From contig NZ_CP011391.1 of assembly GCF_001564455.1 (NCBI RefSeq), positions 450,001-482,000 of the forward strand: DNA of 32,000 nt, written 5' to 3'. The stretch comes from Faecalibaculum rodentium. GTDB lineage: Bacteria > Bacillota_I > Bacilli_A > Erysipelotrichales > Erysipelotrichaceae. The notes beneath the pieces are model-generated. The model had not been told where the DNA came from and searched no databases. It saw only the letters and a list, made by a program, of their open reading frames with translations. Within the stretch, counting starts at the first letter, position 1, and the number at the start of each line of letters is the position of its first letter. Of this stretch, positions 21,759 through 27,591 are shown piece after piece. The translations under genes were made by a program, and so were the position numbers.

Positions 21759-21786
21759 TTGTTGGTATGATAGGACATTATACAAT
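21759..21786 (+). promoter_or_regulatory. Candidate promoter of the corrinoid methyltransferase operon
   Basis: TTGTTG (21759-21764), a 16-nt spacer, then TACAAT (21781-21786). AAAGGAGG and the ATG at 21807 follow within about 20 nt, so the leader would be too short for a riboswitch. Confidence 0.35.
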
Positions 21787-21806
21787 GGGGTCAGAAAGGA
21801 GGGCCT

Positions 21807-22796
21807 ATGCACCGTATTCCATCCTGGGCCCGTACCAGAGACCCGCTCTTCATCCTCTCGTTTCCCGCCGCTGCTGCGCTTGGAAAGACCGTCCGGAGCA
21901 TGGTCACAGACCCGCAGGTCCAGGCAGAGGCAATCCTGGAAATCCGCCGCCGCTTTCCGCGACAGGCCGCCTTCACCGGTCTGATGGACCTGTCCCTGGA
22001 AGCGGAAGCCTTCGGCTACCCCGTCCGGTTTGCCGACGACGACCTCCCGACTGTGCTCGAACCGGTCATCCATACCCCGCAGGATGCCGAAGCCCTGGTG
22101 GTGCCGGACCTGGAAGCCGGCCGCATTCCCGTGACTCTCGAAGCCCTGAAACGGGTGCATGCGCAGGACCCGGACACACCGCTTCTGGCCGGCTGCATCG
22201 GCCCGTTTTCCCTCGCCGGGCGGCTGGCTGATCCCTCCGCTGCCCTGATGATGCCCGTGACGGATCCCGACACTCTGAAGATCCTTCTTGACAAGGCCAC
22301 TGCCTGCCTCATTCAGCTCATCGAAGCCTTCAAAGCCGCGGGCTGTGCCGGTGTGATCATGGCCGAACCCATGGCCGGGCTCATGTCGCCCGCCATGAAC
22401 CGGCGGTTTGTTGTGCCGTGGCTGAAGCGGATCATCGACGCGGTTCAGACAGAGGAGTTCTCTGTCATGCTGCACAACTGCGGGCCCTCCGCCGGCAAGT
22501 GCTGGAATGTCCTGCGCCAGTCCGGCGCTGCGGCGTACCACTTCGGCAATGCCGTGGACCTGCTGCCTATCCTGGAAAGCAGTCCGGATACACCCGTTTA
22601 CGGCAACCTGGATCCCACCGCATTTGTCAGCGAGACCCCGGAAACCATCGCCTGCCTGACACAGTATCTTATTGACAGCTACGGCCAGTGTCCCATGTGG
22701 CGGCTGTCCTCGGGATGCGACATCCCCGCCGCAGCCCATCCGGCAGCTCTGCAGGCAGCCTTCGACGCGTGGGACAAATGGCTGCAGCAGAACTGA
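21807..22796 (+). CDS. URO-D-fold (MtaA/CmuA-like) corrinoid methyltransferase, paralogue 1 (329 aa)
   Basis: AAAGGAGG lies upstream. Family-like blocks: MDLSLEAEAFGYPVRF, GPFSLAGRL and AGCAGVIMAEPMAG. The complete zinc motif H223-N-C225 (22473-22481) plus C304 (22716-22718, SSGCDIP) has the H-x-C-x78-C spacing of MtaA-type enzymes. Confidence 0.8.
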   Translation: MHRIPSWARTRDPLFILSFPAAAALGKTVRSMVTDPQVQAEAILEIRRRFPRQAAFTGLMDLSLEAEAFGYPVRFADDDLPTVLEPVIHTPQDAEALVVPDLEAGRIPVTLEALKRVHAQDPDTPLLAGCIGPFSLAGRLADPSAALMMPVTDPDTLKILLDKATACLIQLIEAFKAAGCAGVIMAEPMAGLMSPAMNRRFVVPWLKRIIDAVQTEEFSVMLHNCGPSAGKCWNVLRQSGAAAYHFGNAVDLLPILESSPDTPVYGNLDPTAFVSETPETIACLTQYLIDSYGQCPMWRLSSGCDIPAAAHPAALQAAFDAWDKWLQQN

Positions 22797-22905
22797 ACCC
22801 CGAAGAAACGCCCGTCCGGAACTTCCAGGGCCGGAACAGCCGCCGCCCGCCAGACAGAGGGCCGGAACTGCAGAAGAACAGAAAGAACAGGAAAGAGAGA
22901 CTGAT

Positions 22906-25959: not shown

Positions 25960-26681
25960 AAGACCTGATTCAGCTTATGGATCTTTCCATAGATGGACCG
26001 GTGGACAGGCAGTTTGTCCTGACACAAGGACAGCTGCTGGTGGCACTCAGCCAGGATGCGTTCATGTGCGTGGATGGAACCCCCGTCAGCCCACATACGA
26101 CCATTGCCGCAGCAGGGCCCGGGACGTTCACGCTGCATTCACAAAGAGCCCATATGGCCCTGCTTGCCGGCGTCCCGGGGCTGGAATCTGGCAGGACCAC
26201 TGCCCCGGAATCCTTTCAGGCCCGGACACTGATTTTCTTCCGGGGACTGGAAAATGCGCTGGAGCGTCCGAAGGAGCCCGATGCCTACATGATTTCTGCC
26301 GTGGTCCTGCAGTTTCTCTCCCACTGGTATCGGCGGAGCACAACAGAAAACAGTGTGGCGATTCAGGCCGCCCGCTGGATCGAAGACCACTGCCGGCAGA
26401 ACATCACCGCAAAAGACGTGGCGCAGGCCATGGGCTATTCCCCGGGGCATGTCATGCACAGCTTCTCCCGTGCCTATGGCATGTCCGTGCACAGCTACCT
26501 GATGCGCTGCCGCATGGCGCAGGTCAAGGAAGCCATTTCCCGGGGGACCCGGAGTCTCGAGGAAATCGCCCTGGACAACGGCTTTTCCAGCCGGAGTGCC
26601 CTGCACAAGACATTTGTGCGCATCTACGGCATCACCCCGGGACAGTACAAACGGTATACAGAAAGGATCGATGGATCATGA
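25956..26681 (+). CDS. AraC-family transcriptional regulator (241 aa)
   Basis: C-terminal double HTH: ITAKDVAQAMGYSPGHVMHSFSRAYGMSVHSYLMRCRMAQVKEAI...LEEIALDNGFSSRSALHKTFVRIYGITPGQYKR. The N-terminal roughly 120 aa look like a cupin-type ligand domain. GGAGG lies 7 nt upstream. ATGA overlaps occur at both ends. Confidence 0.85.
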   Translation: MKDLIQLMDLSIDGPVDRQFVLTQGQLLVALSQDAFMCVDGTPVSPHTTIAAAGPGTFTLHSQRAHMALLAGVPGLESGRTTAPESFQARTLIFFRGLENALERPKEPDAYMISAVVLQFLSHWYRRSTTENSVAIQAARWIEDHCRQNITAKDVAQAMGYSPGHVMHSFSRAYGMSVHSYLMRCRMAQVKEAISRGTRSLEEIALDNGFSSRSALHKTFVRIYGITPGQYKRYTERIDGS

Positions 26682-27106
26682 AGAACACAATGCTTGCGGC
26701 CGGTGCCCTGAGCCTGGCACTCATGGCCGGCTGTGCCGGCACAAAGCCGGCTGACCAGACCGCAGCTTTGACAGATACATCTGCCCAAAAAACAATTCAC
26801 ATCCTCGCAAAGGATCAGAATGGGAACACTGTCGTGGATGAAGACATCACCACAACCGCCGGCAACCTGACAGATGCCCTGAAAAGCAGCGAAGACCTCA
26901 ATGCAACATTCGAAAACGGAGAGTATGGCACCATGATCATGGGACTGGAGGGTCTGGCAACCGAAGACTGGAACAAAGGCCCCTGGTGGACCTATGAATC
27001 CGACAACAACACCGTCTGCCAGAAGGAAGGATACTGCCCCGCCGCGGATGATGTGATCATCGCAGACGGAGACAGTTTCGTCTTCACCTTCTCCAGCGGC
27101 AGCTGA
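26678..27106 (+). CDS. Lipoprotein with DUF4430 (transcobalamin-like C-terminal) domain (142 aa)
   Basis: MKNTMLAAGALSLALMAGC/AG is a signal peptide plus lipobox. The body (IHILAKDQNGNTVVDEDI...GNLTDAL...GLEGLATEDWNKGPWWTYESDNN...ADGDSFVFTF) fits the DUF4430 pattern (G.W.Y.vN......l.dGD.i.f.y). Confidence 0.65.
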   Translation: MKNTMLAAGALSLALMAGCAGTKPADQTAALTDTSAQKTIHILAKDQNGNTVVDEDITTTAGNLTDALKSSEDLNATFENGEYGTMIMGLEGLATEDWNKGPWWTYESDNNTVCQKEGYCPAADDVIIADGDSFVFTFSSGS

Positions 27107-27591
27107 TGTCCGTCCGCCAGCTCGTGCAGGCGGCCCTGCTCGGGGCTCTGGAACTGGTGGTGTTCACGGCCTTCTCCGGCATCCTGTACCTGGAAGCCGT
27201 GACCTTCACCATTGTATGCGTTGCGCTGTGTCTGGACCGCCGCATTGCCGTGCTGTCCTCGGTCTGCTTCTGTGTCCTGAACATGCTGCTGATCCAGGGC
27301 CTCACTCCCTGGTCCCTGATGTACCTCGCCATTTACCCCCTGTACTCCCTGGGTGTCTCCTGCCTGCGCACGAGACACATGACCAGTCTGCAGGCGGCCC
27401 TGGTCACAGGGTGTCTGTCCTTTCTCACCGGACAGCTTCTGCAGATCCCCTGGATGCTGTTTTCCAGGGTCCTGGCCGCCGGTTACCTGCTGCTGGGACT
27501 GCAGACCTCCCTGATTCAGGGGGTGCTGAGTGTCATCCTGACCTTGTGTCTGTTCCGGCCGGTGTGTGCGGTGCTGAAGACATGCAGGTGA
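27106..27591 (+). CDS. ECF-transporter S-component-like small integral membrane protein (161 aa)
   Basis: About 5-6 predicted TM helices in 161 aa. The N-terminus VRQLVQAALLGALELVV resembles S-component starts. The ATG shares its A with the preceding TGA (TGATG at 27104-27108). The family call is by size, topology and context only. Confidence 0.45.
   Translation: MSVRQLVQAALLGALELVVFTAFSGILYLEAVTFTIVCVALCLDRRIAVLSSVCFCVLNMLLIQGLTPWSLMYLAIYPLYSLGVSCLRTRHMTSLQAALVTGCLSFLTGQLLQIPWMLFSRVLAAGYLLLGLQTSLIQGVLSVILTLCLFRPVCAVLKTCR

Follow-up and report, generated by a model that had tools for sequence, protein, structure and literature searches.

A seven-gene operon of Faecalibaculum rodentium that may encode a folate-free, corrinoid-dependent methyl-transfer system with its own regulator and cobalamin-import module

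Seven plus-strand genes of Faecalibaculum rodentium, a gut Erysipelotrichaceae bacterium (g1 to g7, positions 21807-27591 of the 32-kb window that was the whole of the sequence examined from this genome) may together encode a complete corrinoid-dependent methyl-transfer system, equipped with its own regulator and a module for import of the cofactor. [quoted passage not shown] We infer the direction of this transfer, the half-reaction assigned to each of the two URO-D proteins and the classes of donor and acceptor; we agree with an earlier sequence-only reading of this DNA that the substrate cannot be read from the letters, from which neither donor nor acceptor is assignable.

The gene order and junctions described in that earlier reading were reproduced by an open reading frame list and a junction script, with gaps of 109 nt (g1/g2) and 49 nt (g2/g3), ATGA overlaps at g3/g4, g4/g5 and g5/g6, and a TGATG overlap at g6/g7; the motifs it had listed in g1, g3, g4 and g6 were all found. 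The upstream boundary of the operon is the intrinsic terminator of the preceding unit (21586-21620, plus strand; a 15-bp stem with 9 G-C pairs and a T-run), which consists of glycogen phosphorylase and a 54-aa ORF. Between this terminator and g1 lies a candidate sigma-70-type promoter region (21742-21786, plus strand), recognized from consensus matches only, where our scan placed a promoter-like site at 21742-21771 (TGCACA-18-TATGAT, extended TG). The candidate site proposed earlier, 21759-21786, falls within the same region. An AGGAGG ribosome-binding site is positioned 6 nt 5' of the g1 ATG. At the other end, a long perfect hairpin (about 27714-27775, assigned to neither strand) separates g7 from a convergent, minus-strand RloB-like gene. 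Its folding energy of -59.7 kcal/mol (z = -9.6) was equaled by 0 of 200 shuffles, which bears out the strong 3' hairpin reported earlier at 27719-27775; its U-tract is only weak, and for that reason a terminator pattern scan missed it. This hairpin is probably a bidirectional terminator and the downstream boundary of the operon. The nearest genome, that of a Faecalibaculum MAG (locus L008), has the entire block in common with this window but nothing upstream of it: tblastx homology covers exactly 21792-27580 and ends there, all seven genes being kept at 56-85% amino-acid identity. Since the homology is confined to this interval, the seven genes have been kept together as a single block, and from the sequence g1-g7 are predicted to be co-transcribed as one unit.

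Profile searches returned significant E-values for five of the seven family assignments made earlier, those of g1 to g5, with g6 and g7 remaining below Pfam thresholds. The central components are the most readily recognized. The product of g3 (24029-24652, plus strand, 207 aa) is a corrinoid (cobalamin-binding) methyl-carrier protein with matches to the Pfam families B12-binding (E 4.4e-21) and B12-binding_2 (E 6.7e-21) and a DxHxxG motif in the form D100-L-H-D-I-G; it scores 184-194 bits against the NCBIfam pyl_corrinoid and MtgC families, under their equivalog cut-offs. Overlapping it, g4 (24649-25959, plus strand, 436 aa) encodes a RACo/RamA-type ATP-dependent reductive activase of the corrinoid protein (RACo_middle, E 3.4e-20; RACo_C_ter, E 2.3e-40), with the motifs C5-GGQGL-C11-GK-C14 and D82-IGTTT. 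Its alignment with RACo (PDB 3zyy, E 5.9e-40) begins at residue 37 of the ferredoxin domain of 3zyy, so that the [2Fe-2S] module is short at its N-terminus; all four cysteines (C5, C11, C14 and C44) are present, an in-frame stop lies 15 codons 5' of the g4 start, and the truncation is common to L008 only. The AraC-family transcriptional regulator encoded by g5 (25956-26681, plus strand, 241 aa) has a C-terminal double HTH (HTH_18, E 6.4e-20; HTH_AraC, E 4e-14) and an N-terminal 130 aa to which the profile search matched no family. The earlier reading knew of no described system with the regulator inside such a unit, yet an AraC gene follows the activase gene at L007, L008, L011, L012, L016 and L088, which makes it a conserved member of this family of cassettes.

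The last two genes are strongly supported as a cobalamin-uptake pair by their context and by structure, Pfam scores being subthreshold for both. The product of g6 (26678-27106, plus strand, 142 aa) is a lipoprotein with a DUF4430-like (transcobalamin beta-domain-like) domain that scores 20.2 bits (E 8e-4) against a gathering score of 23.8, and the L008 orthologue (E 2.5e-4) likewise falls under that score; PDB 3u7z is matched at E 0.006. The lipobox (M-A-G-C19) and the motif EDWNKGPWW are conserved, and every g6 homologue is accompanied by a homologue of g7, at 33-47% identity. The g7 product (27106-27591, plus strand, 161 aa) is a CbrT-like membrane protein resembling the S-components of ECF transporters. 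It gave nothing significant in the Pfam search (ECF_trnsprt at E 0.02, full length), and 6 of 24 members of its family match ECF_trnsprt weakly yet over their full length. The top PDB folds for its AF2 model (pLDDT 92.1) are all S-components (4huq_S, TM 0.73), and the sole meaningful PDB match of the family profile is 6fnp_A (ECF-CbrT; E 0.014, full length). Five distant pairs of the g6/g7 type, in which the gene order is reversed relative to this operon, include three directly behind a cobalamin riboswitch (5' of the g7 homologues at L087, L089 and L092) and one that follows CobA and PduO adenosyltransferase genes. It is this context, together with the S-component fold and the CbrT match, rather than Pfam, that backs the cobalamin-capture pair suggested earlier. 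We propose that g6 is an extracellular cobalamin-capture protein, possibly an analogue of CbrS, and that g7 is a cobalamin-specific S-component using an ECF module encoded elsewhere.

The first two genes encode the putative methyltransferases. The MtaA/MtbA-like, URO-D-fold product of g1 (21807-22796, plus strand, 329 aa; URO-D, E 1.6e-49) carries a zinc motif, H223-N-C225 ... S-G-C304, of which H223, C225 and C304 are invariant in 25 sequences. Its best NCBIfam matches are methylcobalamin:CoM methyltransferase families, all far under their equivalog cut-offs (110 against 244-600 bits). Homologues number more than 7900, with identity holding at about 45% across Erysipelotrichales, Clostridia and Rikenellaceae, and at 40/40 metagenome loci the gene is single-copy, accompanied by a corrinoid protein at 28 and by a RACo gene at 20. 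The product of g2 (22906-23979, plus strand, 357 aa) is a divergent URO-D-superfamily protein that matches Pfam URO-D in its C-terminal half only (E 2.2e-18, 67 bits). A PDB sequence search with the single protein gave no match; the family profile reached UROD and MtaA, each at E 0.005, and did not favor CdmB (E 0.06). Its AF2 model (pLDDT 87.6) is closest in fold to UROD (TM 0.65-0.68) and MtaA (TM 0.60-0.64), and is also similar to MetE barrels. By alignment the metal site keeps His234-x-Cys236, with an invariant Asn320 replacing the third cysteine of MtaA-type enzymes; DDGRYR and DVLHPIQK are further invariant motifs. The URO-D clade to which g2 belongs is divergent and rich in paralogues, and has a His-Cys-Asn site.

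We propose that g2 is the substrate:corrinoid methyltransferase (methyltransferase I) and g1 the methyl-corrinoid:thiol methyltransferase (methyltransferase II). The operon would be turned on by g5 upon binding of a ligand; g6 would take up cobalamin extracellularly and pass it to g7 for import via the shared ECF module; g3 would hold the cofactor via His102 of its DxHxxG motif; and g4, with ATP and its small [2Fe-2S] cluster, would return accidentally oxidized Co(II) to Co(I). With a metal site that lacks the second cysteine, g2 would then methylate g3, yielding CH3-Co(III)-g3. Its donor would carry the methyl group on oxygen, or would otherwise be a non-thiol, and might be a methyl ether derived from the diet. 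The His-Cys-Cys zinc site of g1 would in turn move the methyl group to homocysteine, sulfide or another small thiol. For g2, the His-Cys-Asn motif would fit the loss of a cysteine ligand that Kountz and Balskus describe, in a preprint and from alignment only, for O-acting UroD methyltransferases (PMC10418091). All g2 relatives of at least 41% identity adjoin corrinoid protein and RACo genes, and the occurrence of 1-3 paralogues per cluster (L017, L085, L098, L103) is typical of substrate-specific methyltransferase I enzymes. Genes of sugar and glycoside catabolism recur beside the cassettes (two GH1 and PTS genes at L016; GH38 and a glycyl-radical enzyme at L013; an aldolase, a glycyl-radical enzyme and a SIS protein at L017), which is also consistent with this role. 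For g1, the invariant His-Cys-Cys site, the CoM-methyltransferase matches, the steady identity and the single copy point to methyltransferase II.

The core g1|g2|corrinoid protein|activase, in some cases followed by AraC, is found repeatedly in Erysipelotrichales and Clostridia, and parts of this record speak against the favored roles. In cassettes that hold both g1 and g2, identity is higher for g2 (53-66%) than for g1 (37-44%); cassettes L017-L023 and L029 have neither a g1-type gene nor any other second methyltransferase within 8 kb; and 31/40 g1 loci are without a g2-class gene. At L005/L015 (Erysipelotrichaceae MAG) the order is g2-like|MtaB|corrinoid protein|RACo, and the g2-like gene, translationally coupled to MtaB, occupies the place of acetogen and methanogen MtaA, which favors g2 as methyltransferase II and would make the locus a complete MtaABC-like set. 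The polarity could thus be the reverse, with g1 a methyltransferase I that demethylates a thiol or selenol (donors such as methanethiol, dimethylsulfide, a methylthio-metabolite or methylselenide) and g2 a constant methyltransferase II with a non-thiol acceptor, possibly tetrahydrofolate in a MetE-like barrel; we consider this unlikely, though deserving of some weight. It would account for the persistence of g2 while its partners change (g1-type, a 452-aa UroD-thioredoxin fusion, MtaB), and for the resemblance of its model to MetE barrels, which bind folate, and it would accord with the proposal that Mlp-type His-Cys-Cys enzymes demethylate methyl-selenium and methyl-sulfur compounds (PMC10418091). 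The constancy of g2, however, is partly due to its having been the search seed: from the g1-seeded search, g1 is the constant, single-copy gene and the g2 class is variable and multi-copy. Reversal would also imply several methyltransferase II enzymes per cluster at L017, L085, L098 and L103. Moreover, g2 retains a His/Cys metal site that folate N5 methylation does not need, and we know of no UroD-fold folate methyltransferases.

Profile searches agree with the earlier observation that the operon contains no MttB-, MtaB- or MtmB-type and no pterin-binding methyltransferase. Enzymes of the MttB and MtmB types were likewise not detected up to 8 kb from any related cassette surveyed; MtaB was found neither in the window nor at 40 g1 loci and, among sister cassettes, is present in L005/L015. 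Searches for a MetH-like pterin domain came up empty in the window, in the 20-odd g2 cassettes and at the 40 g1 loci with their 8-kb flanks, although, with E. coli MetH as the sole tblastn seed, they were weak for the related loci. A folate methyltransferase could be encoded elsewhere in the genome, and both URO-D proteins might then be methyltransferase I enzymes that serve one corrinoid protein from different donors and share a distant pterin-binding methyltransferase II; the system would then be a bacterial demethylase of the ordinary kind whose genes are dispersed. We know of no acetogens among the Erysipelotrichaceae, which counts against such an arrangement, and we regard it as quite improbable. 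Acetogens do often have clusters with several methyltransferase I enzymes to one corrinoid protein, and both that protein and methyltransferase II can be shared (PMC13391211); moreover, the 32 kb seen and the weak pterin-domain detection leave it room; against it, no pterin-type gene was picked up when some 60 related loci were searched together with flanks of 8 kb, g1 is nearest to methylcobamide:CoM methyltransferases, which act as methyltransferase II, and Kountz and Balskus report genomes with comparable clusters without any folate methyltransferase (PMC10418091).

Multi-UroD sets without a folate methyltransferase have been described by Kountz and Balskus (bioRxiv 2023, PMC10418091) as mlp gene clusters, of which type 1 MGCs are the closest description of this operon. 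Their hosts are anaerobic Firmicutes, gut species included, and g1 has the Mlp-typical His-Cys-Cys; g2, in contrast, is His-Cys-Asn and only a remote URO-D relative, selenium and sulfur genes are absent near this operon, and neither an AraC gene nor a cobalamin-uptake pair is described as part of mlp clusters. Salvage of methyl-sulfur or methyl-selenium compounds of the mlp type, in which both enzymes would act on S/Se compounds (e.g., in thioether-to-thiol transfer ending in methionine), would suit the several UroD-type proteins with corrinoid protein and activase but no folate methyltransferase, the site in g1, and the Rikenellaceae, where the neighbors of g1-type genes are a corrinoid protein and another protein similar to the MetH activation domain. 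We give it little credence: type 1 Mlps keep a His-Cys-Cys sphere almost without exception and g2 does not have it, the cassettes examined and the DNA beside them showed no sulfur, selenium or methionine-salvage genes, and no Erysipelotrichales genus appears in the portion covered of the published list of type 1 cluster organisms or in a term search of all supplements.

The Odm, Vdm, Mtv and Cdm systems of bacterial O-demethylation and dehalogenation (OdmABCD, VdmABCD, MtvABC and CdmBCA) resemble the operon in comprising a methyltransferase I, a corrinoid protein, a methyltransferase II and an activating enzyme, the first of the UroD superfamily and often paralogue-expanded, the last RACo/RamA-like. 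The earlier suggestion that both half-reactions would fall to URO-D paralogues as in Odm/Mtv was mistaken, however, for in those systems the UroD type is methyltransferase I only and OdmD, VdmD, MtvA, CdmA and bacterial MtaA are pterin-binding TIM barrels that make methyl-tetrahydrofolate, of which this operon has none (PMC13222342); acetogen MtaA is a protein of 29.7 kDa (PMC13391211). With MtaB/MtaC/MtaA and MtsA/MtsB of methanogens the operon would share the logic of a donor methyltransferase, a corrinoid protein and a UroD-fold zinc enzyme that methylates a thiol without folate; MtaA, MtbA and PRK06252 are the best families for g1, and the sister cassette L005 holds MtaB. Here, by contrast, the methyltransferase I role of MtaB would fall to another UroD-fold protein, and these bacteria are not, to our knowledge, expected to contain coenzyme M. 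As for the uptake pair, the similarity of g7 to ECF-CbrT is marginal (E 0.014), and unlike cbrS-cbrT of Lactobacillus delbrueckii, g6/g7 are without a riboswitch and are chained to a methyltransferase operon; the likeness lies in the S-component fold, the profile match to 6fnp, the pairing with a small second gene, and the association of such pairs elsewhere with pduO and/or a cobalamin riboswitch. A cobalamin-uptake gene inside a coupled unit, of which the earlier reading knew no described case, is in fact matched by nrdJ-cbrS-cbrT-pduO of L. delbrueckii, in which a cobalamin S-component is encoded within the operon of a B12-dependent enzyme (PMC5997447).

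The operon comprises seven plus-strand genes whose layout in the sequence-only reading was reproduced exactly from an ORF list and a junction script: two genes for predicted URO-D-fold methyltransferases, g1 (21807-22796, 329 aa) and g2 (22906-23979, 357 aa), followed by those for a corrinoid protein (g3, 24029-24652, 207 aa), a RACo-type activase (g4, 24649-25959, 436 aa), an AraC regulator (g5, 25956-26681, 241 aa), a DUF4430-like lipoprotein (g6, 26678-27106, 142 aa) and a candidate CbrT-like ECF S-component (g7, 27106-27591, 161 aa). From g1 to g7 the junctions comprise gaps of 109 and 49 nt, then three ATGA overlaps and finally a TGATG overlap, as had been claimed, and all of the motifs listed in that reading were found at the residues it gave; the feature is real and correctly delimited. 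On the 5' side lie the terminator of the preceding unit (21586-21620, with a 15-bp stem) and a promoter-like site detected by a site scan (21742-21771). The hairpin 3' of g7 (dG -59.7 kcal/mol, z = -9.6) is a plausible, if unproven, bidirectional terminator, because it sits between convergent genes and has no good U-tract. The remainder of the window holds, 5' of the operon, rpoB, rpoC, a gene for a Rib-domain surface protein, asnA and a glycogen phosphorylase gene, together with an IS66-family transposase gene on the minus strand directly 3' of rpoC (9967-11652, E 4.9e-69), in a stretch with a lower GC content of 0.50 and strongly negative GC skew. ORFs of the window at 12.5-15 kb had no Pfam family match, nor did a 54-aa ORF (21413-21577) that follows the glycogen phosphorylase gene and precedes the strong terminator and that gene callers called in 4/4 sibling contigs.

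A scan of a genome collection with the g2-family alignment yielded 241 relatives, the closest of which (85% identity) belongs to an uncultured Faecalibaculum MAG, L008 (MGBC163852), that has the seven genes complete and in unchanged order, with amino-acid identities of 56-85%. When the window was compared with L008 by tblastx, homology spanned exactly 21792-27580 and resumed at 30113, with an unrelated upstream flank; the operon thus forms a discrete block that is conserved as such, and near-identical copies of it are carried by several gut metagenome assemblies. The segment missing from L008 on the 3' side (27600-30110, with homology returning inside a DUF5131 gene) contains minus-strand genes for an RloB-like protein (27801-28601) and a CPBP/Rce1-like protease (28621-29352) and a minus-strand TetR gene (29349-30365). 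We considered horizontal transfer of the block, of which its GC content (0.611 versus 0.558 in the remaining window) and the lost upstream synteny with L008 are suggestive, and set it aside; no mobility genes adjoin the operon, and the IS66 transposase is 10 kb off.

Profile searches bore out the earlier assignments of URO-D (g1 and g2), both B12-binding domains (g3), the RACo domains (g4) and, in Pfam, HTH_18 (g5), as well as the observation that no MttB-, MtaB-, MtmB- or pterin-binding methyltransferase is among the seven products (Pfam and NCBIfam). The corrinoid protein g3 has the B12-binding_2 cap and the Rossmann domain with DxHxxG of the MtxC type: both Pfam domains match at about E 1e-21, D100-L-H-D-I-G is present, and the score against TIGR02370 (184 bits) is just under the cut-off of 215. 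In g4 both the RACo middle domain (E 3.4e-20) and RACo_C_ter (E 2.3e-40) are found, and the alignment with the RACo structure 3zyy (E 5.9e-40) begins at residue 37 of the ferredoxin domain. The protein begins right at the first cluster cysteine (MSRDCGGQGLCGKC; window 24649-24790, L008 9750-9890), and a longer ORF is excluded by an in-frame stop 15 codons upstream. Set beside six activases of related cassettes, those of the window and L008 alone have a [2Fe-2S] ferredoxin fold minus its first 25-35 residues; the four cluster cysteines are invariant among the activases compared.

The first methyltransferase, g1, matches the Pfam URO-D family (PF01208) over its full length (residues 21-324 of 329, E 1.6e-49), and its predicted zinc site, H223, C225 and C304, is invariant in 25 homologues, g1-type proteins retaining a His-Cys-Cys site in the form HNCG...SSGCDIP. 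Its best curated families are methylcobalamin:CoM methyltransferases (PRK06252, MtbA and mtaA_cmuA), all far below their cut-offs: scores against the NCBIfam models MtaA, MtbA and mtaA_cmuA were 109.5, 89.9 and 89.8 bits, where 244, 600 and 235 are needed. Since g2 reaches at most 38 bits against the same models and both proteins thus miss the cut-offs, neither is an equivalog of a characterised enzyme. Homologues of g1 number more than 7900, their identity levelling off at about 45% in Clostridia and Rikenellaceae, and a metagenome scan gave at least 557 confirmed relatives. Among the matches listed, 40 loci were of at least 8 kb; the g1-type gene was single-copy in all 40 of them, and was accompanied by a corrinoid protein in 28, by RACo in 20, by DUF2284 in 10 and by one to three copies of g2-class genes in 9, while MtaB was found in none (0/40), nor was a MetH-like pterin domain (0/40, with a weak seed).

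Two kinds of g1-type locus deserve a separate description. In L083 (6298-8709), where the order is corrinoid protein, g1-type gene and a gene for a protein like the MetH activation domain, and likewise in L133, L166, L142, L146 and L172, from Rikenellaceae and other gut contigs, the g1-type UroD and the corrinoid protein occur with a protein of about 210 aa that matches Met_synt_B12, the MetH activation domain, at 26.9 bits (cut-off 25); this trio resembles a MetH-like module split into separate proteins, its methyltransferase having the UroD fold. In L085, a Clostridia metagenome contig, a UroD gene, an AraC-B12-binding fusion gene, a second UroD gene, the g1-type gene, DUF2284 and RACo follow one another, and the two further UroD proteins are remote members of the g2 superfamily (29% and 23% identity). 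The fusion (4343-5905) is one protein of 520 aa in which AraC_binding and HTH_18 are joined to both B12-binding domains, and it is the sole corrinoid-binding protein called in the 15-kb locus read, which suggests that it either regulates by sensing the state of the corrinoid or acts as carrier and regulator in one.

The second methyltransferase, g2, is divergent, its sequence match to Pfam URO-D (E 2.2e-18) being limited to the C-terminal half (residues 139-340). Its AF2 model (pLDDT 87.6) points to a URO-D fold over the full length, as the whole chain superposes on UROD with TM 0.65-0.68 and on MtaA with TM 0.60-0.64, and resembles MetE barrels more weakly. The g2-type proteins retain LHCCG, have an invariant Asn in place of the third Cys and share an invariant DVLHPIQK; in g2 itself H234 and C236 of the predicted metal site are present, with the invariant Asn320 at the third position. 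As a single sequence g2 had no match among PDB sequences, and the weak matches came from the family profile only: UROD and MtaA at E 0.005 and, more weakly, CdmB (9rui) at 0.064, CdmB being the sole member of the OdmB/VdmB/MtvB/CdmB/MtoB branch compared. By sequence profile, g2 thus appears to be roughly equidistant from all three. An exhaustive search with the g2 profile found, at E <= 1e-30, 1355 cluster representatives, of which many match the C-terminal half of the profile only. Two unusual proteins, P0037 (606 aa), a seeming g1-g2 fusion in which g1 residues 1 to about 305 are followed by g2 from about residue 45, and P0001 (451 aa), a seemingly elongated g2 with duplicated internal segments, were discarded as chimeras, probably artefacts of assembly or deletion.

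Relatives of g2 of at least 41% identity all adjoin a corrinoid protein gene and a RACo gene, and differ in their second methyltransferase. This is g1-type in L008, L009, L011-L014, L016 and L088; a 452-aa UroD-thioredoxin fusion, with CobW and DUF1638, in L007/L082, L010, L024-L028 and L030; and MtaB in L005/L015, while L017-L023 and L029 have none within 8 kb. In the 452-aa fusion the zinc His is missing (FFVCG...SPGCDMP), and the C-terminal domain is thioredoxin-like with CAAC; the fusion gene adjoins g2-type genes in Holdemania, Holdemanella and other Erysipelotrichaceae (e.g., L007 3517-7892). The cassette of L005 (8001-14568, Erysipelotrichaceae MAG Md513_bin22) combines a bacterial MtaB (PF12176) with RACo, a corrinoid protein and a UroD of g2 type, and amounts to a methanol system like that of methanogens in an organism that is not one; genes for a HEAT-repeat protein (409 aa) and a membrane protein (174 aa) come next. 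Several cassettes lie near genes for glycoside or sugar catabolism: that of L016 adjoins two GH1 enzymes and PTS genes, that of L013 a GH38 mannosidase and a glycyl-radical enzyme, and in L017 (228-9886, Erysipelotrichaceae UBA2227) two g2 paralogues flank a C_GCAxxG_C_C protein, a DeoC/LacD aldolase and a glycyl-radical enzyme with its activase, a SIS-domain protein then following, a gene set that may point to the breakdown of a methylated sugar or diol. More distant relatives (at most 40% identity, L031-L081) had no corrinoid genes nearby, and were dropped as a functional clue, their contexts being heterogeneous (a sulfatase with GH101 and GH42 in one, unrelated genes in another).

The proposal that g6 and g7 form a cobalamin-uptake pair is well supported, and the S-component fold of g7 was recovered by modelling, although by sequence neither protein passes a formal family threshold. 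Thus g6 resembles the DUF4430 domain (PF14478), the C-terminal domain of transcobalamins (PMC4350170), at E 8e-4 and 20.2 bits (21.9 for the L008 orthologue), below the gathering score of 23.8, and weakly matches the DUF4430 structure PDB 3u7z (E 0.006). As a single sequence g7 had no significant match in Pfam; PF12822 reached it at E 0.02, below threshold, with 0.0011 for the best family member, and matches of g7 alone to triosephosphate isomerase among PDB sequences were dismissed as chance in favour of the profile and fold results. The only meaningful PDB match of the g7 family profile, over the full length, is 6fnp_A (E 0.014), the cobalamin transporter ECF-CbrT (PMC5997447), and the AF2 model of g7 (pLDDT 92.1), for which 10 of the 11 top PDB matches are S-components (TM up to 0.73, probability 0.97-1.0), predicts the six-helix S-component fold. 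The 29 homologues of g7, none with a Pfam domain, always have an adjoining g6 homologue, before or after, of 33-47% identity, and these partners retain the lipobox and an EDWNKGPWW motif. We examined five distant contexts of the pair (L087, L088, L089, L091 and L092), and these link the g7 family to cobalamin: a cobalamin riboswitch (80-91 bits) lies directly 5' of the g7 homologue in L087, L089 and L092, a PduO gene also lies 5' of the pair in one of these, L089, as do CobA and PduO genes in L091, and in L088 the pair, with g7 before g6, ends another cassette of g1, g2, corrinoid protein, RACo and AraC. Taken together, these contexts, the S-component fold, the CbrT profile match and the DUF4430 likeness make g6/g7 a well-supported candidate B12-uptake pair. 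The 32-kb window contains no ECF module (EcfA, EcfA', EcfT), and no riboswitch was found in or before the operon at gathering thresholds or at E up to 1, a lone mir-673 match being noise. Two lineages, Faecalibaculum and one other, have the CbrT-like import pair appended. A g6-like (DUF4430-like) ORF of 29% identity also occurs at about 15997 in L171, some 4 kb 3' of a cluster of g1-type, AraC, corrinoid protein and RACo genes, and the link to cofactor capture may recur beyond the two documented lineages.

We conclude with high confidence that the system is a methyl shuttle built on a corrinoid protein and supplied with an activase, a regulator and cofactor import of its own, in a unit without a folate-type methyltransferase. 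As to the division of labor, we infer and favor an arrangement in which g2 would act as methyltransferase I, loading the corrinoid carrier, and g1 as methyltransferase II, unloading it. For g1 this is because the protein is conserved and single-copy and has a thiol-type site as in methylcobamide:CoM enzymes; for g2, because its class is divergent, with up to three paralogues per cluster, lies near glycoside and sugar catabolism genes, and has lost a Cys ligand, as reported by Kountz and Balskus for O-acting UroD methyltransferases (PMC10418091). The strongest argument against this role for g2 is the L005 cassette, where a g2-like gene takes the position of MtaA beside MtaB; another is that, within cassettes, g2 is the more highly conserved.

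MtsA of Methanosarcina catalyses both half-reactions, and by analogy a g1-type enzyme alone with a corrinoid protein could already form a thiol-to-thiol shuttle; among the matches listed, 31 of the 40 g1-type loci are without a g2-class gene. A bolder and rather improbable extension of the favored roles is that g2 founds an uncharacterised methyltransferase I family that would demethylate dietary non-aromatic methyl ethers, such as O-methylated sugars or glycoside aglycones freed by neighbouring glycosidases, with the g1-type enzyme passing the methyl group directly to a thiol, for example homocysteine. If true, it would provide non-acetogenic gut Firmicutes and Bacteroidota with a folate-independent path from dietary methoxy groups to methionine or volatile methyl-sulfur compounds.

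Corrinoid methyltransferase systems decide whether anaerobes can use methoxy, methylamine, methylthiol and halomethane groups, and their role in gut bacteria outside the acetogens and methanogens is poorly understood. The module of g1-type enzyme, corrinoid protein and activase abounds in gut metagenomes, as the numbers of g1 relatives indicate, and the g2 clade is its variable partner in some lineages. Knowing the donor and the acceptor would tell whether a methyl shuttle independent of folate operates in fermentative gut bacteria, which bears on dietary methyl-ether turnover, methionine supply and the formation of methyl-sulfur gases. The g6/g7 pair, as a candidate module for B12 uptake under riboswitch control in Gram-positive gut bacteria, is a tractable target for work on cobamide competition.

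Among known systems, the sequence-only reading had likened the assignment of both half-reactions to URO-D proteins to the bacterial O-demethylases of the Odm/Mtv type. This analogy fails, because in the Odm, Vdm, Mtv and Cdm systems methyltransferase I alone is UroD-type and methyltransferase II is a pterin-binding enzyme (PMC13222342) that makes methyl-tetrahydrofolate, whereas no such enzyme is encoded in the operon and, with weak detection, none was found in the flanks of related cassettes; acetogen MtaA, for its part, is a protein of 29.7 kDa (PMC13391211). Both URO-D proteins might alternatively be methyltransferases I, the gene for a folate methyltransferase then lying at another place in the genome; we regard this as unlikely, and a tblastn search of about 130 loci with E. 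coli MetH domains found no pterin-binding methyltransferase, a weak negative given its low sensitivity. The nearest description of the operon is that of the mlp gene clusters, which combine several UroD proteins resembling MtaA with a corrinoid protein and an activase and have no folate methyltransferase (PMC10418091). The operon has a corrinoid protein and an activase and, like the type 1 clusters, no tetrahydrofolate methyltransferase, and it might on these grounds be taken for an mlp-type sulfur or selenium salvage system, a reading that we consider very doubtful, as no sulfur or selenium genes accompany it. It contains at most one Mlp-like protein, g1, since g2 is without His-Cys-Cys, and, with no Erysipelotrichales genus in the available portion of the organism list of type 1 clusters (PMC10418091), it is for these three reasons not demonstrably a type 1 member. 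Our literature search found nothing relevant on corrinoid demethylation in Erysipelotrichaceae. There is a precedent for an importer gene in the operon of an enzyme that depends on B12, since the CbrT gene sits in an nrdJ-cbrS-cbrT-pduO cluster (PMC5997447). Precedents thus exist both for this class of architecture and for the cofactor-import logic; the operon is a variant in which the uncharacterised g2 clade is paired with a very common module of g1-type enzyme, corrinoid protein and activase, with the CbrT-like pair appended.
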